From positions 85,672-149,671 of the forward strand of contig JAGSHC010000001.1 of NCBI GenBank assembly GCA_023954745.1: a stretch of DNA of 64,000 bases, read 5' to 3'. The DNA is from Deltaproteobacteria bacterium (GTDB lineage Bacteria > Myxococcota_A > UBA796 > UBA9615). The position numbers were made by a program, and so were the translations under genes. Shown here one piece after another: positions 47,116 through 61,944 of the stretch (its first letter is position 1; every line of letters begins with the position of its first letter). The notes beneath the pieces are model-generated. The model saw nothing but the letters and a program-made list of their open reading frames with translations, was not told the origin of the DNA and did not search any database.

Positions 47116-48072
47116 GTGCATTCTGCCCTTCCCATTCCGTCTGCTCCATCTCGTCACCCCTTCGAAGGTGCGGCGGGGATCCTCGAGAGGGTGGGGAACA
47201 CTCCGCTCGTGCGGCTCTGTCACGTGGCCGAGGGACTGCCCGACGACGTCGAGGTCTGGGCGAAGCTCGAGAGCGCGAATCCCGGGGGCTCCGTGAAGGA
47301 CCGACCGGCCCTCGCCATCGTGTTGGACGCCATCCGTACGGGCCGGCTCAAGCGCGGTCAGCGGATCCTCGATGCGAGCTCGGGGAACACTGGGATCGCC
47401 TACGCGATGATCGGGGCGAACCTGGGCTTCGAGCTCACCCTGTGCCTGCCGAAGAATGCCAACGCGGAGCGAAAGCAGATCCTCTCGGCGTACGGGGTCG
47501 AAGTCGTCGAGACAGATCCGCTGGAGGGGAGTGACGGCGCGATCCGCAAGGCGCGCGAGCTCGCCGTGGACACCGAGCGCTACGCCTACCTCGACCAGTA
47601 CAGCAACGACAACAACTGGCGGGCTCACTACGGGTCCACCGGGCCCGAGATCGTCGCCCAGACCGGCGGGGGCGTGACCCACTTCGTGGCCTCCCTGGGC
47701 ACCAGCGGCACCTTCATGGGCACCACCCGCTTCCTCCGCCAGTGGAGCCCTGCGGTGAAGTGCTACTCGGTGCAGCCGGATTCCCCGTTCCATGGACTCG
47801 AGGGCCTCAAGCACATGGAGACCTCCATCGTGCCGCCCATCTACGACGACACCCTGGCCGATGGAAACATCGAGGCGCCCACCGAAGAGTCGTTCGAGCT
47901 GGTGCGTGATCTCGCCCGCTACGACGGAATTCTCGTCGGTCCCTCCTGCGGCGCAGCATGCTGGGCTGCTCTCCAGGTGGCGCGCACACTGGAGAGCGGA
48001 GTCGTCGTGACGGTGTTTCCCGACAGCGGCGAGCGCTACCTCAGCGAGTCCCACCTCTGGAACGCCCCATGA
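47116..48072 (+). CDS. cysM: PLP-dependent cysteine synthase, CysM (sulfur-carrier-dependent) type by gene context
   Basis: VGNTPL, NPGGSVKDR, SSGNTG, LGTSGT, PDSGERYLS; first gene of the mec-cysO-moeZ operon. Confidence 0.85.
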   Translation: MHSALPIPSAPSRHPFEGAAGILERVGNTPLVRLCHVAEGLPDDVEVWAKLESANPGGSVKDRPALAIVLDAIRTGRLKRGQRILDASSGNTGIAYAMIGANLGFELTLCLPKNANAERKQILSAYGVEVVETDPLEGSDGAIRKARELAVDTERYAYLDQYSNDNNWRAHYGSTGPEIVAQTGGGVTHFVASLGTSGTFMGTTRFLRQWSPAVKCYSVQPDSPFHGLEGLKHMETSIVPPIYDDTLADGNIEAPTEESFELVRDLARYDGILVGPSCGAACWAALQVARTLESGVVVTVFPDSGERYLSESHLWNAP

Positions 48073-48485
48073 CCTTGCACATCATCCCCGAGCAGCTCGC
48101 GATGCTTCATCAGCACGCCGAAGAGGGCTTTCCCCACGAGGTGGTAGGCATCCTCGCCGGTTCGCGGGAGGACTGGAGCGTCACCGAAGTCGTGCCGCTC
48201 ACCAACGAGCGAGCTGACTCCGCGCACAATCGCTACAAGGTCTCGGGCCTGTTGTTGATGCGCGCCGAGCAGGAGCTCGAGTCCCGCGGCCTCGAGGTCG
48301 TCGGCTACTACCATTCCCACCCTGACCACCCCTCGCAGTACAGCGACTACGACCGCGACCACGCCCTGCCGAACATGAGCTACGTCATTGTTTCGGTGAT
48401 GAGCGGGCGGGCCGCGACCACCCAGAGCTGGCGGCTGACCGACGACCGGTCCCGCATGGACGAAGAAGAGCTCCACTCCCTCTGA
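48069..48485 (+). CDS. mec: JAB/MPN (M67) metallopeptidase, Mec-like
   Basis: PHEVVG; YHSHPDHPSQYSDYD (E...HxH...S..D); ATGA overlap. Confidence 0.88.
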   Translation: MTLHIIPEQLAMLHQHAEEGFPHEVVGILAGSREDWSVTEVVPLTNERADSAHNRYKVSGLLLMRAEQELESRGLEVVGYYHSHPDHPSQYSDYDRDHALPNMSYVIVSVMSGRAATTQSWRLTDDRSRMDEEELHSL

Positions 48486-48512
48486 TCAGAGGGTCGAGCT
48501 ACAGGAGAGACC

Positions 48513-48794
48513 ATGAGCGTGTCCGTGATGATTCCCACCGCCCTGCGTTCCTACGCAGAGGGCAACGCGTCCATCACCTGTTCCGGGTCGACCGTGGGCG
48601 AGGCGCTGGCCTCTCTGACGGAGCAGCACCCCGGTCTCGCGAAGCACCTCCGTACGGCGGACGGGAAGCTGCGCAGCTTCGTCAACGTCTACCTGGGTGA
48701 AGAAGACATCCGGTACATGGACGGCGAGGCCACCCCCGTCGCCGAGGGCGCGACGCTGACCATCGTGCCCTCCATCGCTGGAGGAGCCCGATGA
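48513..48794 (+). CDS. cysO: Ubiquitin-like sulfur carrier protein (CysO/MoaD/ThiS family) ending GG-AR
   Basis: IPTALR, FVNVY, DIR, IVPSIAGG followed by two extra residues. Confidence 0.88.
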   Translation: MSVSVMIPTALRSYAEGNASITCSGSTVGEALASLTEQHPGLAKHLRTADGKLRSFVNVYLGEEDIRYMDGEATPVAEGATLTIVPSIAGGAR

Positions 48795-49984
48795 ACGCCC
48801 CCAAGACCGAGCTCCCGGAGCTCAACAACGAAGAGATCGGCCGCTATTCGCGCCACCTCATTCTCCCCAACGTGGGCATGGAGGGGCAGCGCAAGCTCAA
48901 GGGTGCCTCGGTGCTCTGCGTGGGCACCGGGGGGCTCGGCTCACCGCTGGCGCTCTACCTCGCGGCGGCTGGAGTGGGTCGCATCGGGCTCGTGGACTTC
49001 GACGTCGTCGACGCCAGCAACCTGCAGCGGCAGATCATCCACGGCACCTCCTGGGTCGGGAAGAGTAAGGTGGAGAGCGCCAAGGCGCGGATCGCCGACC
49101 TCAACCCCAACGTGCAGGTGGACGTCTACGAGGAGCCACTGACGTCGGACAACGCCCTGGCGATCGTGGAGCCCTACGACGTCATCGTCGACGGCACCGA
49201 CAACTTCCCCACGCGGTACCTCGTCAACGACGCGTGCGTGCTGCTCGGCAAGCCCAACGTGTACGGCTCGATCTTCCGCTTCGAGGGCCAGGCATCGGTG
49301 TTCAACCACGAGGGCGGGCCCTGCTACCGCTGCCTCTATGAGGAGCCGCCGCCTCCAGGCCTCGTGCCCAGCTGCGCCGAAGGCGGCGTGCTCGGGATCC
49401 TCCCCGGCATCATCGGGGTGATCCAGGCCACGGAGATCGTGAAGATCATCCTCGGCGTGGGCGAGACCCTGTCCGGTCGCTTGATGCTCTACGACGCCCT
49501 GGGGATGAACTTCCGTCAGCTCAAGCTGCGCAAGAACCCCAAGTGTGTGATCTGCGGCCCGAACCCGACCGTCACCGAGCTCATCGACTACAACCAGTTC
49601 TGCGGTGTGCCGAGCATGGACGAGGGCGCACGTCCCACGGACGTCTCCCAGACCGACGAGGGGTTCGCCCGGCTGTCCGTGAAGGACATCAAGGCGAAGC
49701 TGGATGCCGGTTGGGCGCCCTTCGTGCTCGACGTGCGCAAGCCGCACGAGGCGGACATCGTGAAGCTCGACTTCGCGGACCTCCTGGTGGCCCACGAGGA
49801 CGTGGCCGCGCACCTGGCGGAGATCCCGAAGGACCGTGACATCCTCGTGCACTGCAAGATGGGTGGACGCTCGGCGAAGGCCAGCAAGGTGCTCGCGGAC
49901 GCTGGCTACGGCAGCGTGACCAACATGGAGGGCGGCATCACGGGGTGGGCGAACGAGATCGACCCCAGCCTGCCCACGTACTGA
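48791..49984 (+). CDS. moeB: ThiF/MoeB adenylyltransferase-rhodanese fusion (MoeZ-type)
   Basis: RYSRH, GTGGLG, SNLQRQ, DGTDNF, CYRC, rhodanese loop HCKMGGRS. Confidence 0.93.
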   Translation: MNAPKTELPELNNEEIGRYSRHLILPNVGMEGQRKLKGASVLCVGTGGLGSPLALYLAAAGVGRIGLVDFDVVDASNLQRQIIHGTSWVGKSKVESAKARIADLNPNVQVDVYEEPLTSDNALAIVEPYDVIVDGTDNFPTRYLVNDACVLLGKPNVYGSIFRFEGQASVFNHEGGPCYRCLYEEPPPPGLVPSCAEGGVLGILPGIIGVIQATEIVKIILGVGETLSGRLMLYDALGMNFRQLKLRKNPKCVICGPNPTVTELIDYNQFCGVPSMDEGARPTDVSQTDEGFARLSVKDIKAKLDAGWAPFVLDVRKPHEADIVKLDFADLLVAHEDVAAHLAEIPKDRDILVHCKMGGRSAKASKVLADAGYGSVTNMEGGITGWANEIDPSLPTY

Positions 49985-50994: not shown

Positions 50995-53505
50995 CTAGAA
51001 GCGATAGGTCGCGCTTCCCAGTACCCGAGGGCCCACCACGGTGCCCAGGCAGTGCTCACGGTGGCCGCCAGTGCCGAAGCCGATGAGGTTGTTGCCGCTG
51101 ATCCCCACCTCGAGCTTGTCCTCGAGGAAGCGGAACCCGACGCGGGCGTTGAGCAGCGGGTAGGCGCCGGCCTCGCAGTCATCGACCACCACGTTCCCCG
51201 TGGCGTCGAAGGCCCGCTCGGGCACGTTCACGTTGCTCACGACGTGGAAGTCGACGTTGGCGTCGAGCCCAAAGGGGCTCCGGTAGGTCACACCCACCAT
51301 CCCCATGTGCTGCGGATGACGTCGGTCGAAGTGGTCCGGCGCCGTCAGCCCCGAGTCCTTCTTCTCCTGGTCGATGGTGAGGTTCAAGGAGTAGTTGGCG
51401 CGGATGTCGAGGCCGTCCAGCGGGAACGCGTGTACCTCAGCCTCCCCGCCCAGCGCATGGAAGACGCCGTCGATGTTCTCGAACGTCGAGCTGCCGGCGA
51501 TGAACTGCGAGCCCTGGAGCTCTACGCGGTCCGCGCTCTGCACGCCCCCCAGGGCGATGAGGTTGGAGACGCGCTCGTAGTACGCGTTGACCCCGAAGCT
51601 GATGTAGTCGCTGTCCTCGAAGGTGTAGCCGAGCTCGACACTGAAGATGTTCTCGGGCGCCAGCTCCGTGCTCCCCAGGGACTGCAGGGCCACACCCTTG
51701 ACGTTGGTCGGCACCACGAGGTCCAGGTAGCTCTCCAGGAACGTCGGGGTGCGGAAGGCCGTCCCCGCCGAGACGCGCAGCGACTGGCCGCCAGTGGGCT
51801 TCAGCAGGACCGTGGCTCGGGGCGACGGCGTGAAGCCCACCAGGGGATGCTGGTCGAAGCGGAACCCGAGCACGGCGACCACCTGGGGCACGAAGGTGAT
51901 CCGATCCTCCACGAAGCCGTTGAGGTGTTGCTCGAGGTGGTTCTCGTCGAGGTAGTCCCAGTTGATGGTCTTGAGCCGATAGCCGGCGCCAGCGCTCAGG
52001 TCGTGGCGCACCGGGCCGGTCATGGCGGTGCCGCTGTACAGCGCCTCCACGTCGACGACGTGGCTCTTGACGTCGGTGCCGAGGTCGAGACCTCCCACCG
52101 GCTGCCATGTGGGGCTCGCCTCGGCGTCAAACACGTTCCAGAACGCGCGGACCGACAGGCCCCCGATGTTGATGTCCGTACGTACGTCGGTGATCAGACC
52201 CTGGAGCCAGTAGTCCCGGAACACACCGATGGCGAAGAAGTTGTCGAAGACGTAGGAGAGGCCACCGGACACTCCGATGCTGACGTTCTCCGCCGGCACG
52301 ATGGTCACCCCACCGTTGGCTCGCAGAGCGCGCACCGCGAGGCTGGCGTCCTGGGTCGTCAGCTCGACGTCGGTGCGATCGGGCCCGTACTCCAGCGCAT
52401 ACCGGTCGGTCTGCTCGTAGCCCACGGAGCCCCGCCAACCCACGATCCCCTTGCGACCCGAGAACTGCACATTCCCCTGCAGCGTCTCGCCGGTGCCGCC
52501 GCGAATGGTCACCTGGCCGCCCTGGGAGCTGCCGGCAGCCTTCGTGATGATGTTCACCACGCCGCCAAAGGCGTTTGCGCCGTACAGCGTCGAGCCGGGC
52601 CCCCGGATGACCTCGATGCGCTCGATGTCCGCGAGGTCGATGGAGAGGGTGCGGAAGAAGGTGCCACCGAGGAAGTCGAAGTAGGCCGACCGCCCGTCCA
52701 CGAGCACGAGCAGCTTGTTGGAGATGCGCTGGTTGAAGCCGCGCACCGCGAGGTTCGCGTTCCCCGCCCCCATCGTCAGCGTCGACATGCCAGGCACCCG
52801 CCGCAGGATGTCCGGGATGTTGGTGACTCCGGAGAGACGGATGTCCTCAGCGGTGATGATGGTGATCGCGGACGGCGCGTCGACCGGCGCCGTGGCGGTG
52901 CGCGACGCGGAGACGACCTGCTCTTCGTAGAAGTCGCCCCCCTTCGCCTGAAGCAGCTCGGCCTCGGGTGCATCGGCGAGCACATCGACCTCGGGCTCGG
53001 AGGTGCCCTCGATGCGGTCGGCCAGGGCCTCGAGACGCTCCAGGAGCGCAGCGATCTCAGGAGCCGCGACCATCTTTCCCGATGCCGAGGGGGCTGGAGT
53101 CGTCGTGCCCGTGGGCTCGCTTCCGGGGAGCGTCGGACCCGTCGGTGTGTCCGTGGTGGGGTTGGTCTCGTCCTCCTGCTGACGGAGGAGGACGATCAGC
53201 CGCTCCACAGCCGCGGTGTCGTCCGGTCGCTCGGCGAGGTAGGCCTCGAAGGCCTCGACGGACTTGTCGAACTCCCCGGCATCGGCCCACGCGAGACCAA
53301 TGTTGTAGAGGACCGAAGGGTGCGGGAGCAGGTCGTACGCCTTCTGGAGCAGGAGCGCCCCGTCGGCGTGCGCTCCCTGTTCGATGAGCTCCATCCCCGT
53401 GCGGAAGGCGCGACGCGCGTCATCTCGGGCATCAGCCAGAGCCTGTCCCGGCACGAGCAGGAGCAGGAGCAGGAGGGCGAGCGCACGGAGGGGGCGTGTC
53501 GACAT
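50995..53505 (-). CDS. TonB-dependent receptor with an N-terminal TPR domain
   Basis: Signal peptide ALA|DARDDARRAF; TPR (LLQKAYDLLPHPSVLYNIG); TonB-box-like EQVVSASR; plug ILRRVPG, VRGF, IERIEVIRGPGSTLYGANAFGGVVNIITK; barrel ending ATYRF. Confidence 0.92.
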   Translation of the reverse strand: MSTRPLRALALLLLLLLVPGQALADARDDARRAFRTGMELIEQGAHADGALLLQKAYDLLPHPSVLYNIGLAWADAGEFDKSVEAFEAYLAERPDDTAAVERLIVLLRQQEDETNPTTDTPTGPTLPGSEPTGTTTPAPSASGKMVAAPEIAALLERLEALADRIEGTSEPEVDVLADAPEAELLQAKGGDFYEEQVVSASRTATAPVDAPSAITIITAEDIRLSGVTNIPDILRRVPGMSTLTMGAGNANLAVRGFNQRISNKLLVLVDGRSAYFDFLGGTFFRTLSIDLADIERIEVIRGPGSTLYGANAFGGVVNIITKAAGSSQGGQVTIRGGTGETLQGNVQFSGRKGIVGWRGSVGYEQTDRYALEYGPDRTDVELTTQDASLAVRALRANGGVTIVPAENVSIGVSGGLSYVFDNFFAIGVFRDYWLQGLITDVRTDINIGGLSVRAFWNVFDAEASPTWQPVGGLDLGTDVKSHVVDVEALYSGTAMTGPVRHDLSAGAGYRLKTINWDYLDENHLEQHLNGFVEDRITFVPQVVAVLGFRFDQHPLVGFTPSPRATVLLKPTGGQSLRVSAGTAFRTPTFLESYLDLVVPTNVKGVALQSLGSTELAPENIFSVELGYTFEDSDYISFGVNAYYERVSNLIALGGVQSADRVELQGSQFIAGSSTFENIDGVFHALGGEAEVHAFPLDGLDIRANYSLNLTIDQEKKDSGLTAPDHFDRRHPQHMGMVGVTYRSPFGLDANVDFHVVSNVNVPERAFDATGNVVVDDCEAGAYPLLNARVGFRFLEDKLEVGISGNNLIGFGTGGHREHCLGTVVGPRVLGSATYRF

Positions 53506-55208
53506 CAATAGGGATTGTCCTTGTAGCCCGACGGCACCTTGTCGGGCTTCGCTTCGGGCTTGGGAGTCGGCTTCGCTTCGGGCTTGGGGGTCGGCTTCGC
53601 CTCGGGCTTGAGAGTCGGCTTCGCTTCGGGCTTGGGGGTCGGCTTCACTTCGGGCTGTGGCGCTGCCTTCGCCGCCGGCTCGGTCCGGGGGGTCGGCACC
53701 GCGCTCGGATCGGGTCGGAGGGTCCCCGACCAGCTCAGCGAGCCGTCGTCGGTCGGCAGGTCGACCTCGCGGGTCACGTGGCCGTCGAGGCTGATGCGCA
53801 GTGTCACGCTGTCGGGCTGGTATGGGGCGCGGTACTCGGGGAGGGTGACAGGGGTGGTGCCCAGAGGAACGAACGTCCCGTCGAAGCTGATGTCCACGGT
53901 GGCCCCCGCGGGGTCGCTCGTGACGGAGACAGCGAGAGCGGCGGCGTCCCCTACCTCGATCTCGCCTGGGGCGGCTGCTCCGAGATTCTCTTCGGGGGGC
54001 GGCATCCTGCTGTCCCCGGGCTTGAGCACGAGGAAGGCGATCGCAGCGAGAAGCAGGGCCGCGATTCCGCCGAGGACCGGGAGCACCGGGGAGCGCTTGT
54101 TGCGACGGACCTTCCTTGGCCTCTGGGCGCGGGCTGACGACGTTCCAGGCGCGGCGGCGGGCCGAGGAGCCGGCGGCGGTGGCGCGAGTGGTTCGACCGC
54201 CGGGATGGAGCCGGGCTCCAGATCGAGCTCGAGAGACTCGTTCACCTCGAGGTCGAGGGTCTCGGTGTCTTCCTGTCCAAAGGCGGCGCCCACCGCACGG
54301 AGGGCGATGACGAGCTGCCCCATGGACTGGTAGCGCTTCTCGGCGTCCTTTTCGAGGCACTTCGCCACCAGCTCCTCGAGCTCCGGCGTGGTCTGCGATG
54401 CGGGGTTGAGCTTCCACATCGGCTTGGGCTTCTCGTGCAGATGCGCGTGCAGGACCTGCATGGGATCGCCGTCGAAGGGCGGGTGGCCGGTGATCATGGT
54501 GAACAGCAGGATGCCGAGCGCGTAGATGTCCGCCCGGTGGTCGACCTCCTTGTTCCGATCGAGGGCCTCGGGCGACGTGTAGCGGGGTGAGCCCAGGAAC
54601 TTGCCGGCGAGGGTGATCTCCGAGGCCTCACCGCGAAACTTCACCAGCCCGAAGTCGAGGACCTTCACGAAGTCGAGGTCCTCGTCGCGGTCGACCAGCA
54701 GCACGTTTGCGGGCTTCAGATCCCGGTGGATGATCCCCTTGCGATGCGCCTCGCGCAGCGACTTGCACACCTGCTTGGCCACGTGGATCGCCCGGGCCGG
54801 CGAGAAGGCACCTTCGTGGGAGAGCACCGCGCGGACGTCGTTGCCCTCGAGGTACTCCATGACGATGTAGAGCGCTCCGTCGTCGGCCTGGCCGAAGTCG
54901 TGCACTGTGATCGTGTTGGGGTGTGAGAGTCGAGCCGCCGCGGCTGCTTCGCGTAGAAAGCGCTCGTCGAAGTTCGGATCGTCCTCGAGGGACTCGGGAG
55001 GCTTCAGGATCTTGAGGGCGACCTCGCGGCCGAGAGGCGACTGGTTGGCGAGGTAGACGACGCCCATTCCACCGCGTCCGAGCAGTCGCTGGATGTCGTA
55101 GCGACCTGCGAAGACCTCACCCACGTCGGGCATACGCGTCGGGATCGCGGGGACCTTGCGCAAGGTGTCCGCGAGGGTCCCAAGCCCCTTCGTCCCGTCT
55201 TCAGGCAT
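53505..55208 (-). CDS. Transmembrane Ser/Thr kinase with a periplasmic PEGA domain, KPTPKPEA repeats and a GYKDNPY C-terminus
   Basis: LGRGGMG, VALK, HRDLKPAN, DFG, YTSPE; TM VLPVLGGIAALLLAAIAFLVL; PEGA-like VTSDPAGATV...LGTTP; TGATG overlap with the receptor gene. Confidence 0.93.
   Translation of the reverse strand: MPEDGTKGLGTLADTLRKVPAIPTRMPDVGEVFAGRYDIQRLLGRGGMGVVYLANQSPLGREVALKILKPPESLEDDPNFDERFLREAAAAARLSHPNTITVHDFGQADDGALYIVMEYLEGNDVRAVLSHEGAFSPARAIHVAKQVCKSLREAHRKGIIHRDLKPANVLLVDRDEDLDFVKVLDFGLVKFRGEASEITLAGKFLGSPRYTSPEALDRNKEVDHRADIYALGILLFTMITGHPPFDGDPMQVLHAHLHEKPKPMWKLNPASQTTPELEELVAKCLEKDAEKRYQSMGQLVIALRAVGAAFGQEDTETLDLEVNESLELDLEPGSIPAVEPLAPPPPAPRPAAAPGTSSARAQRPRKVRRNKRSPVLPVLGGIAALLLAAIAFLVLKPGDSRMPPPEENLGAAAPGEIEVGDAAALAVSVTSDPAGATVDISFDGTFVPLGTTPVTLPEYRAPYQPDSVTLRISLDGHVTREVDLPTDDGSLSWSGTLRPDPSAVPTPRTEPAAKAAPQPEVKPTPKPEAKPTLKPEAKPTPKPEAKPTPKPEAKPDKVPSGYKDNPY
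53545..53656 (-). repeat. 24-bp tandem repeat (about 4.7 copies) encoding KPEAKPTP
   Basis: Plus-strand unit ggcttcgcttcgggcttgggrgtc at 53545, 53569, 53593, 53617 and 53641 (partial). Confidence 0.92.
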
Positions 55209-55274: not shown

Positions 55275-56681
55275 TCAGCGGCGCCGACGCCCAGGCAGCG
55301 CGCGCACGGCCGCGCGTAGGAGGGGGCGTCGTGCCGAGCGCACGAGGCGGCTGGACACCGAGCCGTTGCCTTTGGCTCCGCGGCTGTCCAGCCAACCCAC
55401 GGCGGCGTCGAGAACGGCCGACGGCAGGACGCCGTCCTTCGCTGCACGGTCGGCGACCGGGCCTTCGACCACCCGGGCCCAGTCCTTGCGGAAGAGCGCC
55501 GGGGAGTCGGGGTCGACGCGCGTGACCTCCACCCCATGGGGCTCCACGATGCTCACCATCTGCAAGGTCTGGTCGAGGTCGGCCCGGGTCTCACCGGGGA
55601 GCCCCACGAGGACCTGCAGCCCCAGCTCGATCCCGACAGAGCGCACGGTCGTCGCCGCCCGGTAGACGCTCGCGGGCTCGTAGGACCAGGAGAGCGCCTT
55701 CATCAGGCGAGACGACCCGCTGGCCGCGTCGAGCTCGAGGCGGACGCAGCCAACGCGGGCCAGCCGCTCCACGCTCGCTTCGTCGAGGTTCGCGGGGTGG
55801 GCGCTGGCCTCGAACTCGACCTCGCGGCCGCTCTGCTCGATGGCATCACAGAAGTCGGCGATCCAGGTGGGGTCGAAGAGAAAGACCTCATCGGTGAACA
55901 CGAAACGATCGACGGGGAAGCGATCGAGCAGATCCATCATCTCCGACACGACGTCCGCTGGGGTACGCCGCCGGTAGGGGCGTCCGAACACCGTGTTCGT
56001 ACAGAAGCCGCAGGAGATCGGGCAGCCCCGAGCCGAGCGAATCGCGAGCTGACTCCCGGCGCCGAGGGTGAGCCAGCGATCGAGGTGCACGCGGGTGACC
56101 TCCGGGTCCCGGTAGGGACGCGGGAGCTCTTCGATGGGCACCAACCTCTCGGCGCCGGCGGAGTAGCGCAGGGTCCCGTGCTGATCCATCCAGCAGGTGC
56201 CGGGGATCCGCGAGAGCACGTCGCTGTCGGGGCGGTAGTCGTTGGCGCGGAGGGCCAGCACCAGGTCGAGGGTCGCGTTCTCCCCTTCCCCGAGGACGAC
56301 GGCGTCGGCGCCGGAGCGTAGATAGAGCGAAGGCCGGAGCAGCGCGTCGGGACCAGCTGCGATGACGGTGGCGCCGGCTCGGCGCGCCATGCGGCAGAAC
56401 TGAGTGGCGGTGTCACGGGTCGTGGGGTGGGTGTAGAGCCAGGCAACCCGCGGGCGCAGGCGTGACACTGCCACCTCGAACGCTCCGAGATCGCGCCGGA
56501 AGGTCGAGTCCCAGGTCTCCACCGCTGTAAACGCGCGGTCCGCGATCCAGGCAGCTACTTCGGCGGGCTCCAGTGGGGGCAACGGGTGCACGGCCCCCGG
56601 ACGACGGCGGTCGAGTCCGAGCATGTACGCGTGAGCGAACAGCACCTCGGGCTGGATGACGTACTGGCCGGTCTTGTCCAC
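55275..56681 (-). CDS. B12-binding-domain radical SAM protein
   Basis: RGCPISCGFC (CxxxCxxC); N-terminal cobalamin-binding-like region (AGPD, GEGE); DEVF; GLPGET. Confidence 0.85.
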   Translation of the reverse strand: MDKTGQYVIQPEVLFAHAYMLGLDRRRPGAVHPLPPLEPAEVAAWIADRAFTAVETWDSTFRRDLGAFEVAVSRLRPRVAWLYTHPTTRDTATQFCRMARRAGATVIAAGPDALLRPSLYLRSGADAVVLGEGENATLDLVLALRANDYRPDSDVLSRIPGTCWMDQHGTLRYSAGAERLVPIEELPRPYRDPEVTRVHLDRWLTLGAGSQLAIRSARGCPISCGFCTNTVFGRPYRRRTPADVVSEMMDLLDRFPVDRFVFTDEVFLFDPTWIADFCDAIEQSGREVEFEASAHPANLDEASVERLARVGCVRLELDAASGSSRLMKALSWSYEPASVYRAATTVRSVGIELGLQVLVGLPGETRADLDQTLQMVSIVEPHGVEVTRVDPDSPALFRKDWARVVEGPVADRAAKDGVLPSAVLDAAVGWLDSRGAKGNGSVSSRLVRSARRPLLRAAVRALPGRRRR

Positions 56682-56691
56682 GGAGTGGTGG

Positions 56692-58467
56692 CTACTCCCA
56701 AGGGTCGGGACGCGGGACGCGTACAGCGAAGACGCCGCAGCGATTTGCGACGTACAACGTAGCGGAACCGGACTCCAGGACAACCTGCCTCGGAGGCGCG
56801 CCCACGCTGACCGCGCGTTGGTGCCAGGTGACGTCGAGATCGACCAGGGTCACTGAGGCATCGATCGGGGAGGAGACGTAGGCCGCGCGTCGCTTTGGCG
56901 AGTAGTGCACGGCGCCGGGCCAGACCCCCACGCGCACCGTGTCGGCGCGCCCCGCGAGGGTCTCTCGCACGCGCGCCTCGGGGTCGGAGGCGGAGGCGTG
57001 AAGGGTCGGCACGGGGACGGGTGGCCCCCGCAGCTCCAGGTGGCCAGTGGGGCCTCGCGCGATGAGGAACCGGCCCGGCGAGGAGGCGACGTCCGCGGCC
57101 CAAGGCACGGGACCGCTCGTGGCCACGGCCCCTACTGGGCTCACCACCTGCGCCTGGGCGAGAGGCCCGGGCCCGAGGGTGAGCAAGCCTCCTGACAGCA
57201 CCTCGCGTGGCGTGCCTGGGAGGTCGAGGGGCTGAGTCGCGACTCCGGTGACTCGGACGGTCCGCTCCCCACATCCCAGAAGGAGGTGGGCTCCCTCATC
57301 CAGCGCCCGGTCGGGCCGACAGCCGAGCTCGACGGTCTCCGCGCTCTCCATGAGGAGCCGAGGAACATCCCAGCGCTCGATGAGGGCTCCCTCTTCCTGC
57401 GGCACCACGCGGGTGACGAGTCCTCCCGGCTCGAGGGGGCTCACGAGGAGTCCCCCGGGGGGATCCAGCGCGATGCTGTCTCCGAGGGCCCCCGTCACGG
57501 TCATTCGCCGCAGCGAGGCGCCCTCGTCGGCGAGAAGAGCGAGGTAGCCGAGGTTGCCGGCGGACAGAGCGATGCCGTGCACGTCGCGTGCCTCGAGCAG
57601 GGTCTTCACGGGGGCTTCTTCGGCGACATCCGCGCAGCGCCAGCGTTCTGTGAGGGCGAGCCGTCCCGAGGCGCACGCGCAGACCACCAGGGCGTAGAGC
57701 AGGACCCGCGATCGACCCCGGGCGTCTCGAGGGAGTTGGGGTGGGTAGGCCCCGACGACGGCCCCGAGGACGGCCGCCGAGAGCCAGGCCTGGTCGCTGC
57801 CGAACGTCGCGACGAGGACGAGGGACCCGACGACCCCGCCAAGGATGCTGGCCGCGCCGCGCATGGCCGGACCGGCGAGGAGCGGGATGGCCGCGAGGGG
57901 GAGGAGGACCGCGGCGCCATCTGCCACCAGGGGACGATCGCTGAAGAAGTGCGCCACGAGGTCGAGGGCGTCCTGCGGGACGAGGCCGGGCCCGAAGGGC
58001 CGAGACGTCGCCAGCCCCCACCAGAGAACTGGTAGGGCTGCGATCTCCCAACGCGCGGGACCGGGCTGAGGGCCCCGCTCGGCGTCGGCCGGGGGAGGTG
58101 AGGGGTCCTTGGCTGTGAACCATGCGGCGACGAGGAAGACGGCCGCGATCCACGGGAGTGGGCGGGCCACGGCCGCGACTGGGGCCAGCATGGCCAGCGC
58201 CGCGATCCAAACGACCGGTCGGATGGTCCCAGGGACCCGGGAGTTGGGCCGCGCGAGGCCGATCGCAGTGAGAATCAGACAGATCAGACCCCCCGTCAGG
58301 GGGAATTGAGACGGAATTCGCGCGAGAAACGAACCTGGGATCGAGGCGAGATCGAGCCACTCTGGAGAGGTCCCCGCTCCCCACGAGATGAGGAGCGGAG
58401 CCAACGCCGCTGCGGGGATCAGGGCCCATCGTGAGGACGTTGAAAGCGCTGCGAAACCCTGGCTCAT
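56692..58467 (-). CDS. Multi-pass membrane protein with a C-terminal beta-propeller-like (YncE-like) domain
   Basis: Hydrophobic N-terminal half; C-terminal VRVG..P...AYVS and VSVG..P...LYVAN repeats. Confidence 0.6.
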   Translation of the reverse strand: MSQGFAALSTSSRWALIPAAALAPLLISWGAGTSPEWLDLASIPGSFLARIPSQFPLTGGLICLILTAIGLARPNSRVPGTIRPVVWIAALAMLAPVAAVARPLPWIAAVFLVAAWFTAKDPSPPPADAERGPQPGPARWEIAALPVLWWGLATSRPFGPGLVPQDALDLVAHFFSDRPLVADGAAVLLPLAAIPLLAGPAMRGAASILGGVVGSLVLVATFGSDQAWLSAAVLGAVVGAYPPQLPRDARGRSRVLLYALVVCACASGRLALTERWRCADVAEEAPVKTLLEARDVHGIALSAGNLGYLALLADEGASLRRMTVTGALGDSIALDPPGGLLVSPLEPGGLVTRVVPQEEGALIERWDVPRLLMESAETVELGCRPDRALDEGAHLLLGCGERTVRVTGVATQPLDLPGTPREVLSGGLLTLGPGPLAQAQVVSPVGAVATSGPVPWAADVASSPGRFLIARGPTGHLELRGPPVPVPTLHASASDPEARVRETLAGRADTVRVGVWPGAVHYSPKRRAAYVSSPIDASVTLVDLDVTWHQRAVSVGAPPRQVVLESGSATLYVANRCGVFAVRVPRPDPWE

Positions 58468-58598
58468 CGGCAGGGAGAGTAACGCGACCAGCCTGCCTGA
58501 ATGGACGGGAGGGGCTCGTGAGCCCTATAATCCGGCGTTCGTAGATGGCAGTTTGGAGCGAAGCTCCTTGCGTTCCAGCGAAGTCGAGGCGGACCTGC

Positions 58599-59423
58599 AT
58601 GTCGGATGAGAGCGGGAACACGGGCGAGGGAGAGTCGGAGGACTCCGCCCTCAGCGAGCTGAAGAACCGACTCGCTCCAGCCGTGGGTGGATTGTCGGAC
58701 GTCGGTCGAGTCCGGGAACTAAACGAAGACAACTGGTTCTGGGCTCCCCTGGACGAGGAACTCGTGCTGTACGCGGTTGCGGATGGCATGGGTGGCCACG
58801 ATCGGGGCGAGGTTGCGAGCCAGGTCGCCGTGGAGCAGCTCTTTGTAGCCGCCCGCGCGGGACTCGCCACCCTCACCACGCGGGAGATTCCGGCGCTCCG
58901 CGACATGCTTCGCGAGGCCATGCAGACCGCGAATCGCGCGGTGGTGACGGCCGGCGAGGAGAACGACTCGAACATGGGGACCACGCTGACGTGCTCCCTC
59001 GTCTACAAGGACTCGGACGCAGTGGTCGCCAACGTGGGTGACTCGCGGGCCTACCTGGTGCGAGAGGGGCGACTCAAGCCCATCTCCCAGGATCACAGCC
59101 TTGTGGCCTATCTGGTTCAACTCGGGGAGCTGACTGCCGAAGAGGCACGTACGCACCCCTCGGGGAACATCCTCGTGCGCTCCATCGGTTCGATGCCGGA
59201 GGTCGAAGTCGACGTCTATCACGTCGAGGTGCAGAGGGGAGACCGGATCATGATCTGCAGTGATGGGCTCTGGGGAGAGATCTCCGACGCCGACATTCAG
59301 ACCTTGATGAAGGACAACCCCCTCCCCCAGGACGCCTGTCAGGCCCTGGTGGACCGAGCGAACGACGAGGGAGGCCGTGACAACACGACGCTCATCGTTG
59401 TCGAGGTCGGGGGCGCCGAGTAA
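58599..59423 (+). CDS. PP2C-family Ser/Thr protein phosphatase
   Basis: SDVGRVRELNED, VADGMGGH, MGTT, NVGDSRAY, DHS, CSDGL, GGRDNTT. Confidence 0.94.
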   Translation: MSDESGNTGEGESEDSALSELKNRLAPAVGGLSDVGRVRELNEDNWFWAPLDEELVLYAVADGMGGHDRGEVASQVAVEQLFVAARAGLATLTTREIPALRDMLREAMQTANRAVVTAGEENDSNMGTTLTCSLVYKDSDAVVANVGDSRAYLVREGRLKPISQDHSLVAYLVQLGELTAEEARTHPSGNILVRSIGSMPEVEVDVYHVEVQRGDRIMICSDGLWGEISDADIQTLMKDNPLPQDACQALVDRANDEGGRDNTTLIVVEVGGAE

Positions 59424-60064: not shown

Positions 60065-61771
<1,707 letters not shown>

Positions 61772-61944
61772 CGCTCGGTAATAGACCCGGAGGGTGTTGA
61801 TTTGGTGCGAAGTTGGAACAACCAACGCCTACACAACTTCTCAACATATTCGGCAGGGTCTGCAGTAGGTGCCGATGGTCACTGCGGTGACCGGCTATCG
61901 GCATAAGTAACTACGATTGTTCGTGAATGCGCGATTTACAGATG

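Follow-up and report, generated by a model that had tools for sequence, protein, structure and literature searches.

A Ser/Thr kinase gene overlapping the gene of a TPR-bearing TonB-dependent receptor: a candidate kinase-based variant of cell-surface signalling

Anatomy of the overlapping kinase and receptor genes

We analysed a 64,000-nucleotide stretch of a Deltaproteobacteria bacterium contig, referred to in its entirety as the window, in which two overlapping genes, with all of the features described for them below, lie on the minus strand. The upstream gene (53505..55208) encodes a 567-aa single-pass Hanks-type Ser/Thr kinase (Pkinase E 5e-54), and the downstream gene (50995..53505) an 836-aa TonB-dependent receptor with an N-terminal TPR extension. 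The kinase stop codon TGA (53507-53505) and the receptor start codon ATG (53505-53503) share bases, confirming the TGATG overlap at 53503-53507 reported in the original prediction for this locus.

The cytoplasmic kinase domain spans residues 37-294 (54327..55100; Pfam PF00069) and contains the GxGxxG, VALK, HRDLKPxN, DFG and SPE motifs. Residues K66, H161-R162-D163, N168, D185-F186-G187 and P213-E214 are invariant in an alignment of 29 orthologues, and the intact catalytic residues predict an active enzyme. A hydrophobicity scan identified a single hydrophobic segment, the transmembrane helix at residues 373-395 (54024..54092), immediately preceded by the Arg/Lys-rich stretch RPRKVRRNKR and matched by an equivalent segment in 22 of the 23 kinases scanned. 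By the positive-inside rule, the N-terminal side would be cytoplasmic and the tail would lie outside, in the periplasm.

Beyond the helix, a PEGA-like beta domain (residues 427-483; 53760..53930) is optional in the family. PF08308 was matched in 13 of 29 kinase orthologues at E <= 0.1 (best E 2e-8) and is missing from the remainder, several of which were aligned; the window kinase itself scores 15.6 bits against a cut-off of 20.8 (E 0.015). It is followed by a KPTPKPEA repeat tether (53545..53656; Tandem Repeats Finder, 24-nt unit x 4.7). This low-complexity linker is lineage-specific and, in composition, weakly matches NF008084, the model of the TonB proline-rich spacer (E 3e-4). The linkers of orthologues are unrelated, unalignable sequences of unconserved composition, and the periplasmic part of the kinase is mostly disordered, varying from 91 to 212 residues. 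Neither the PEGA domain nor the Pro/Lys "rod" belongs to the conserved core of the kinase family; each is a feature of particular lineages. The protein ends in GYKDNPY (residues 561-567; 53508..53528). The anatomy originally predicted for the kinase, namely a Hanks domain, one transmembrane helix, a PEGA domain, a repeat and this terminus, is seen in the protein, with a sub-threshold match for PEGA.

The receptor starts with a signal peptide (residues 1-24; 53434..53505), read from the sequence, with cleavage between ALA and DARDD; its orthologues align starting at the mature DARDDARR. AlphaFold2 models five helices over mature residues 2-90 (pLDDT 94-98), and the resulting two-repeat TPR with a capping helix occupies precursor residues 25-114 (53164..53433) and carries the signature LPHPxVLYNIG. 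The top Foldseek match is a designed two-repeat TPR (CTPR2, 1na3; TM 0.82, rmsd 1.9 A), with neighbours that include the Hsp90-peptide complexes 3kd7, 4cgu and 4cgv as well as YbgF (2xev). Pfam TPR matches all fell below their cut-offs (E 1e-4 to 1e-2), and it is the modelled pairing of antiparallel helices that assigns the domain to the TPR fold. G13, P37 and N44 (mature numbering) are invariant.

A Pro/Thr-rich disordered linker, variable in length and sequence (residues 115-148; 53062..53163; pLDDT 45-64), leads to a conserved amphipathic helix, PEIAALLERLEALADRIEG, at precursor residues 149-167 (53005..53061; helix 125-143 of the AlphaFold2 model). Mean pLDDT in 10-residue blocks across this helix is 68, 84 and 57, and its L134 is at least 90% conserved. 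The original prediction did not mention this helix. After a second linker comes EQVVSASR (residues 195-202; 52900..52923), a putative TonB box by its resemblance to the consensus; it is kept in orthologues as [VI]VVSASR or VVVTASR, right behind the N-terminal extension. The predicted order, with a TPR module and a Pro/Thr linker ahead of this putative TonB box, is seen in the protein. A Plug domain (residues 208-316; 52558..52884; PF07715, E 3.5e-26) and a 22-strand-type beta-barrel (residues 405-836; 50998..52293; PF00593, E 5.8e-29, match spanning residues 405-807) that ends in the aromatic TYRF provide the Plug and large barrel expected of TonB-dependent receptors.

Conservation of the pair and of the kinase tail

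A full-length receptor was found in 30 of 41 related genomes, and in 24 of these 30 relatives' loci a tail-bearing kinase directly precedes the TPR-receptor; the other six comprise two with the kinase at a contig edge, one locus that is cut and three without a kinase. An independent scan of named and unnamed myxobacteria, seeded on the TPR signature of the receptor, returned 79 loci, 66 with a tail-bearing kinase directly upstream and two more with one gene between. The upstream Hanks kinase expected from the original prediction is therefore found at most loci of both surveys. Beyond the window's family, adjacency reaches Myxococcus, Corallococcus, Archangium, Polyangium and Sandaracinaceae, and it persists there while the other neighbours differ. 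Eight loci place a single kinase ahead of two tandem TPR-receptors.

The kinase terminus, for which [LY]K.[ND]P[YF] had been proposed, is conserved in relatives as [YF]Kx[DNSE]P[YF] plus 0-2 further residues, while the preceding linker is free to vary. All of the 23 tails compared have the Y and the P, and at least 90% keep the G. Synonymous codons vary across 76 distinct tails (K, AAG 57 and AAA 19; P, CCC 32, CCG 36, CCT 6 and CCA 2), indicating that selection acts on the peptide and not on the DNA. Depending on the locus, the receptor start lies between about -18 and +292 nt from the tail, so that conservation of the tail is no ribosome-binding-site artefact.

In the window genome, tail and receptor also occur one-to-one. 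It contains the TPR signature once and the tail once, the kinase being the only one of 35,739 open frames (>= 100 aa) to end with the tail pattern. Searched as DNA, the pattern YKx[DN]PY-stop gave a single match per genome in 17 of the 41 relatives, and its reversed control gave 0 matches. In 16 of these 17 genomes the match lies beside the receptor; in the 17th it lies on a separate contig, and the second receptor copy of that genome is cut at a contig end. The pattern was found in none of 11 related genomes lacking the TPR-receptor.

These data bear on a reading in which the two proteins never touch, being co-transcribed because the kinase regulates use of what the receptor imports, with the tail serving as a stability, processing or protease signal, such as one for a PDZ or C-terminal-processing protease specific for aromatic ends. 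Most tails do end in an aromatic residue, like the C-termini of outer-membrane proteins, and the receptor itself ends in YRF. However, 21 of the 76 distinct tails carry 1-2 polar residues past the final aromatic, which is awkward for PDZ-type recognition; a tag for general proteolysis should mark several proteins, yet in the window's genome a single one bears the tail; and the tail is missing from the 11 related genomes without the receptor. We regard this reading as very unlikely. The same extended tails show that recognition cannot depend on the aromatic being the last residue, and they speak against a strict carboxylate clamp on the final position.

Receptors without a kinase and neighbouring genes

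Thirty unique TPRs are not preceded by a canonical tail, and all of them retain the full set of TPR invariants (A, F, G, A, PHP, N). Among their loci are at least eight whose available flank contains no kinase. In five genomes whose TPR-receptor has no canonical tail upstream, the narrow tail pattern gave 0 matches. Only one relative's receptor (L058) lacked LPHPxVLYNIG under the first pattern, and this relative lacks the kinase as well, which speaks for the pairing; a looser pattern recovered a divergent version of the signature there. Because the TPR is equally conserved where the kinase is absent, it must have some kinase-independent role or partner. Nor did we find clean covariation of tail variants with TPR positions; the best candidate, Arg8 of the TPR, is substituted in 3 of 75 pairs with a canonical tail as well.

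In 24 of 31 loci the gene after the receptor encodes a beta-sandwich lipoprotein (about 380-430 aa), the usual third member. Together with the kinase-independent conservation of the TPR and the second conserved helix between TPR and TonB box, this neighbour favours a reading in which kinase and receptor are partners and the tail binds something other than the TPR. Candidate targets are the co-conserved lipoprotein, the plug or barrel where it faces the periplasm, peptidoglycan and a component of TonB/ExbD. On this reading the TPR would have another purpose, such as TonB recruitment, self-association via the conserved helix or lipoprotein docking. In the window's genus, however, the locus no longer contains the lipoprotein gene, while the overlap of kinase and receptor persists. 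The lipoprotein is retained in the kinase-less loci L056-L058, so that it tracks the receptor and not the kinase. The absence of the tail from the 11 related genomes without a TPR-receptor likewise speaks against this alternative, which we consider rather unlikely.

A PP2C Ser/Thr phosphatase, a possible reset enzyme, lies on the plus strand (58545..59423); it scores 241 bits with the NCBIfam Stp1/IreP model, whose cut-off is 230. Its identity agrees with the original prediction, but it starts at 58545 and not 58599, and it is syntenic only within the window's family, standing beside the pair in nine relatives' loci of that family and in none outside it. No ECF/anti-sigma pair was found near the locus, as had been anticipated: the only Sigma70_r2 match of the contig is about 60 kb away, outside the window, and FecR has no match anywhere on the contig. 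The signalling domain STN was not matched in the receptor (PF07660, E <= 0.1), nor above cut-off genome-wide. The proposal that the TPR replaces the signalling extension of classical receptors is supported as regards its position N-terminal to the TonB box and the lack of STN, ECF and FecR, but is weakened by the conservation of the TPR in kinase-less loci.

Proposed mechanism and comparison with known systems

TonB-dependent transducers, which mediate cell-surface signalling, include FecA-FecR-FecI, FpvA-FpvR and PupB. Like the FecA type, the window receptor carries an additional domain ahead of its TonB box, on the periplasmic side, and the adjoining gene codes for a single-pass inner-membrane protein that would reach the receptor with its periplasmic end. 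In contrast to FecA, the extension is a TPR and not an STN domain, a Hanks Ser/Thr kinase takes the place of the anti-sigma factor as partner in the inner membrane, no ECF sigma or FecR gene neighbours the pair, and the end of the partner is a seven-residue peptide on a disordered tether instead of a folded FecR C-domain. The pair is best read as a kinase-based variant of TonB-dependent cell-surface signalling.

More specifically, we propose, tentatively and at somewhat less than an even chance, that kinase and receptor are partners in one envelope-spanning signalling module, widespread in myxobacteria, in which the tail docks on the TPR. The receptor is a TonB-dependent outer-membrane transporter whose TPR, on a flexible stalk ahead of the TonB box, would lie in the periplasm; the putatively periplasmic part of the kinase is essentially a variable disordered tether, sometimes with PEGA, tipped by [YF]Kx[DNSE]P[YF]. 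Ligand occupancy, TonB action at the adjacent TonB box, or both, could change the number of kinases held at the receptor; this may alter clustering and trans-autophosphorylation and, in turn, cytoplasmic Ser/Thr phosphorylation. Since a disordered tether offers no obvious allosteric route, the activation step is conjecture. Overall, the original interpretation is partly supported, and its statement that no mechanistic description was known agrees with our finding none of such a kinase-receptor system in print. The conserved pairing, which includes Myxococcus xanthus, points to an undescribed signal route from the outer membrane to the cell interior, and the module is testable in that species (ABF89024.1).

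Alternatively, the tail may bind the receptor merely as a passive tether that relays no ligand signal, either holding the kinase under receptor sites or reporting envelope integrity or periplasmic width, with a substrate-independent signal when the tether breaks or stretches. The mostly disordered periplasmic part of variable length, Pro-rich linkers that resemble TonB spacers and the loci with one kinase before two tandem receptors all speak for this idea. Yet in every case the partner is a transporter with a TonB box and, right beside that box, the TPR, at the position that moves upon ligand binding in FecA-type transducers; a ruler for the envelope in general could work without any particular transporter. 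We therefore judge a passive tether to be distinctly unlikely.

The signalling module proposed above shares single features with three further systems. Like the PASTA kinases PknB, PrkC and Stk1, the window kinase combines a cytoplasmic Hanks domain, one transmembrane helix and an extracytoplasmic sensor part, and its best NCBIfam match is the Stk1 PASTA kinase model NF033483 (316.7 bits against a cut-off of 450, residues 30-395 only); unlike them, it has no PASTA match in Pfam, its outside part being a tether and terminal peptide. Small TPRs that bind short C-terminal peptides include those of Hop, Tah1 and SGT with Hsp70/90 EEVD and of PEX5 with PTS1, and periplasmic TPRs are known from YbgF/CpoB, NlpI and YfgM. 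The receptor TPR has the same fold, and the ligand proposed for it is likewise a short C-terminal motif, although the kinase motif is not strictly terminal and the TPR is fused to an outer-membrane barrel. TonB, finally, shares with the kinase of the window lineage a membrane anchor N-terminal to a Pro/Lys/Glu-rich repeat spacer, and meets a TonB-dependent receptor, as the kinase would in the proposed module. The kinase differs in lacking the TonB C-terminal domain (no PF03544 match), in having a kinase as its cytoplasmic end and in a spacer whose composition varies among orthologues; canonical TonB_C genes are located elsewhere in the window genome.

Anatomy of the kinase and receptor

The kinase gene (window 53505-55208, minus strand, 567 aa) runs directly into the receptor gene (50995-53505, minus strand, 836 aa), the TGA stop of the former and the ATG start of the latter having one base in common within the TGATG at 53503-53507. 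Kinase residues 37-294 match Pkinase (E 5e-54), and the catalytic residues are invariant across 29 orthologues, suggesting an active-looking enzyme. The protein has a single hydrophobic helix (residues 373-395) with RPRKVRRNKR just before it, a weak PEGA match (residues 427-483, E 0.015), a KPTPKPEA stretch encoded by a 24-nt repeat present 4.7 times, and the C-terminal end GYKDNPY, a tail that the positive-inside rule would place in the periplasm.

The receptor comprises a signal peptide, sub-threshold TPR matches at residues 36-103, a Plug domain (208-316) and a TonB-dependent barrel (405-807). As a guide to its substrate, NCBIfam offers TOL_0244 as the top-scoring family, below cut-off, with otherwise generic siderophore/haem/B12 plug matches, and these support no assignment. 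AlphaFold2, given 38 sequences as input, models the first 170 residues of the mature protein with five helices over residues 2-90 (pLDDT 94-98), followed by a disordered Pro/Thr stretch, a further helix (125-143) and another disordered segment reaching EQVVSASR. The nearest solved structure is a designed two-repeat TPR (1na3; TM 0.82, rmsd 1.9 Å), and further structural neighbours include Hsp90-peptide-binding TPRs as well as the periplasmic proteins YbgF, NlpI and YfgM. The TPR domain groups structurally with small peptide-binding TPRs, with peptide binding in the present receptor putative. Together, these features reproduce the two-gene anatomy of the original prediction with four amendments: both genes lie on the minus strand; the PEGA domain is present as a match but is marginal in the window protein; the TPR and Pro/Thr linker were correctly described, to which a conserved helix before the TonB box is to be added; and the nearby PP2C gene begins at 58545 rather than 58599.

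Phylum-wide linkage of kinase and receptor

Full-length searches recovered the receptor complete with its N-terminal extension in 30 of 41 related genomes. Directly upstream of it, 24 of these 30 loci have either a kinase domain or an open frame bearing the tail. Contig ends cut two further loci (L006 and L018), at whose edges tail codons are still visible, another (L012) is cut inside the receptor, and at three (L021, L029 and L030) the kinase is absent upstream. Within the window's family, the gene order is that of a 591-aa open frame, a B12/radical-SAM gene, the kinase and the receptor, with a PP2C and a thioredoxin-like gene divergent; beyond that family only the kinase and receptor stay together, usually with a lipoprotein gene next, so that the pair survives the turnover of all its neighbours.

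A second scan, using one genome per species and seeded on the TPR signature PHPx[VT][LI][YF]N[IM][GA], returned 426 relatives, among which the best 79 loci were examined. These derive from Corallococcus, Myxococcus, Archangium, Pyxidicoccus, Hyalangium and Polyangium, the remainder being metagenome-assembled genomes (MAGs) labelled Labilithrix, Sandaracinaceae, Kofleriaceae, Polyangiaceae and similar. A tail-bearing open frame directly precedes the TPR-receptor in 66 of the best 79, and in two more (L088 and L104) it is also upstream with one opposite-strand gene intervening. Three loci were uninformative (L089 and L126 are short; L076 lies behind another receptor at a contig end), and in eight the available flank contains no kinase (L077, L090, L100, L109, L120, L121, L132 and L138). 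The synteny that the original prediction anticipated is thus borne out in both surveys, 24/30 and 66 of the best 79, counts that are not independent because several contigs are common to both. Counted by unique TPR sequence, 75 of 105 have a canonical tail, [YF]Kx[DNSE]P[YF] plus 0-2 residues, directly upstream. Alignment of the receptor extension alone gave, among the matches listed, 73 at E <= 2e-30 spread over 64 genomes; a phylum tally from the same alignment at E <= 1e-10 (284/401) was set aside, as generic TPR proteins inflate it.

Several loci depart from the simple pair. One kinase stands ahead of two tandem TPR-receptors, both bearing the TPR signature, in eight of the best 79 loci (L080, L084, L099, L106, L122, L124, L127 and L131, several from Sandaracinaceae-like and others from further MAGs). 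At L090 and L109, what precedes the TPR-receptor is, in place of a kinase, a further TonB-dependent receptor together with an open frame of 617-670 aa, which may point to an alternative partner. At L026/L053 (contig 1 of genome G031), the TPR and plug-barrel parts of the receptor lie in different frames downstream of a GYKANPFD kinase, as could arise through a frameshift, an error in sequencing or splitting of the gene.

The association is also specific within genomes. Only one of 35,739 open frames (>= 100 aa) in the window's own genome ends in [YF]K..P[YF] plus 0-2 residues, namely this kinase, and the TPR signature likewise has a single occurrence there. At the DNA level, YKx[DN]PY-stop was found exactly once in 17 of 41 relatives, with no occurrence in the reversed control and none of the pattern itself in the 11 related genomes without the receptor. 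It adjoins the receptor in 16 of the 17; in the remaining genome (G019) it is on a different contig, and a contig end truncates the second copy of the receptor. This pattern is narrow, overlooking S or E at position 4, F and extra residues, and the 13 receptor-bearing genomes without a match are therefore not counter-examples. It also gave no match in five genomes that lack a kinase next to the TPR-receptor; in one of these (L088) a kinase ending in GYKDSPY is present with a single gene between, a case that marks the limits of the pattern. Gene linkage is tight and phylum-wide, with one-to-one occurrence, and we consider it very probable that kinase and receptor are functional partners.

The kinase tail and its possible docking on the TPR

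The original prediction of a conserved kinase terminus was well founded: across 23 aligned tails Y and P never vary and G is conserved to at least 90%, while the linker, a membrane-to-tail stretch of 40-200 residues ranging from Pro/Lys-rich to acidic Thr/Glu-rich, is unalignable among 29 kinases. These 29 full-length proteins keep P566 without exception and Y562 at 90% or more. Kinases of most of the window's family end in GYKDNPY and those of the sister family in GYKDDPY; Corallococcus has [AS]YKDDPYQ, Myxococcus spp. KFKDNPY, Archangium GYKDDPY, Polyangium PYKGNPY and Sandaracinaceae-like MAGs GYK[LT]DPY or GYKAEPY, with GYKANPFD or GYKPSPY in others; the most distant class members end in GYLGFPEDF, GYMPLPDDF, GYEGLPKEFWPDQ or GYGPSPRSP. 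Polyangium spp. (L114, L125, L137, L140 and L142) encode a kinase with a doubled motif, ...NYKPDPYK[GS][ND]PY, separated from the receptor start by a gap of ~141-143 nt with no overlap.

As the codons TAC AAG GAC contain AAGGA, a ribosome-binding site was considered as the source of the conservation and rejected. Among 76 distinct tails, of which 21 extend one or two residues past the aromatic, synonymous positions vary (K: AAG 57, AAA 19; P: CCC 32, CCG 36, CCT 6, CCA 2; final Y: TAC 60, TAT 10), and the distance from tail to receptor start ranges from about -18 to +292 nt, arguing that conservation acts on the peptide.

Whether the receptor TPR is what the tail recognizes is a closer matter. 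Complex prediction with the receptor extension (170 aa) and the last 40 kinase residues scored 0.25 and 0.22 where the mark was 0.32, and was counted neither for nor against contact. In a covariation analysis of the 105 unique TPRs against tails, no column cleanly separated canonical-tail from tail-less TPRs. TPR Arg8, a weak lead from sequence for a tail-linked position, is replaced in a clade whose members lack the kinase or have hydrophobic variants of the tail (FKDVPY, FKEMPY), and also in 3 of 75 canonical-tail pairs. The TPR signature is, moreover, fully conserved where no kinase exists, which favors the main alternative, that the partnership is real but the tail has another target and the TPR another job; we regard this as unlikely. 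A passive tether or envelope ruler is improbable in our view, and a lack of any contact between the two proteins, the linkage reflecting co-regulation or the tail a processing signal, highly improbable. A specific TPR-tail handshake with outside-in signaling we hold to be nearly an even call. In such a handshake, the kinase tail would dock on the receptor TPR, docking would be altered by ligand binding or TonB action beside the TPR, and the docked state would set kinase clustering and hence trans-autophosphorylation. By extension, and somewhat tentatively, the module may represent an undescribed form of myxobacterial trans-envelope signaling, in which the TPR captures or releases the C-terminal peptide of a tethered Hanks kinase and so reports substrate binding or TonB-driven unplugging, Ser/Thr phosphorylation replaces the anti-sigma/ECF relay, and one kinase can serve two tandem receptors.

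The topology resembles FecA-type cell-surface signaling, the receptor TPR standing exactly where transducers carry their signaling domain, but the module lacks the STN domain and FecR/ECF pair that define that family; no ECF sigma, FecR or STN gene was found at the locus. The enzyme is a Hanks kinase but not one of the PASTA kinases, scoring 317 bits on their model where the cut-off is 450, nor is it a TonB, as it has no TonB C-terminal domain; canonical TonB_C genes are found elsewhere in the genome. We class the pair as a kinase-output TonB-dependent transducer. A search of openly accessible main texts found no account of the pair, the tail motif or any coupling of a Ser/Thr kinase to a TonB-dependent receptor with a TPR, and passages of PMC3986340 and PMC12204202 mention neither pair nor motif.

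To our knowledge, Hanks kinases are very numerous in myxobacteria and the input signals of nearly all of them are unknown. In the present case, a single orthologous kinase is genetically hard-wired to an outer-membrane partner throughout the phylum, and carries a seven-residue motif open to clean deletion or mutation. The orthologue in M. xanthus DK1622 (ABF89024.1, ending ...PYKDDPYN) is annotated as a serine/threonine protein kinase only; its position next to a receptor gene is extrapolated from the arrangement in four further Myxococcus species (L107, L123, L129 and L130). As this strain is genetically tractable, the question is directly testable. The handshake, if true, would link surface nutrient or signal capture to eukaryote-like phosphorylation, add a third output type of TonB-dependent transducers besides ECF sigma factors and two-component-type relays, and offer a portable peptide-TPR pair for periplasmic engineering.

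Neighboring genes

In 24 of 31 loci, kinase-less ones included, the receptor is followed on its own strand by a lipoprotein gene (~380-430 aa, with lipobox). Its product has no family in Pfam or NCBIfam, and its protein-atlas matches are hypothetical Myxococcota clusters only. An AlphaFold2 model consists of stacked beta sandwiches (pLDDT 86.7), for which a structure search of the PDB gave matches at TM <= 0.2 and no informative neighbor. In the window's genus the gene is missing from the locus; three tandem copies instead occupy one 1128-aa frame on another contig of the same genome, outside the window (C172:200-3370, plus strand, L061-L063), with 40-41% identity to the family-level orthologue.

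The PP2C gene starting at 58545, which passes the Stp1/IreP cut-off, is found beside the pair at nine loci, all of them within the window's family. The B12-binding radical SAM protein directly upstream of the kinase (55275-56783, minus strand) best matches the RiPP enzyme ApyD (E 1.5e-30, far below cut-off), and beyond it lies the gene for the 591-aa protein of no family (56692-58467, minus strand); both keep synteny with the pair throughout the window's family, not beyond. A sigma-54 enhancer-binding protein (60065-61825, minus strand), whose first ~250 residues have no Pfam match, is syntenic with the PP2C/thioredoxin-like pair in that family. On the plus strand, a JAB/MPN metalloprotease gene followed by a ThiF/MoeB-rhodanese gene (47958-49984) forms a pair of the type seen in prokaryotic ubiquitin-like or sulfur-carrier systems.
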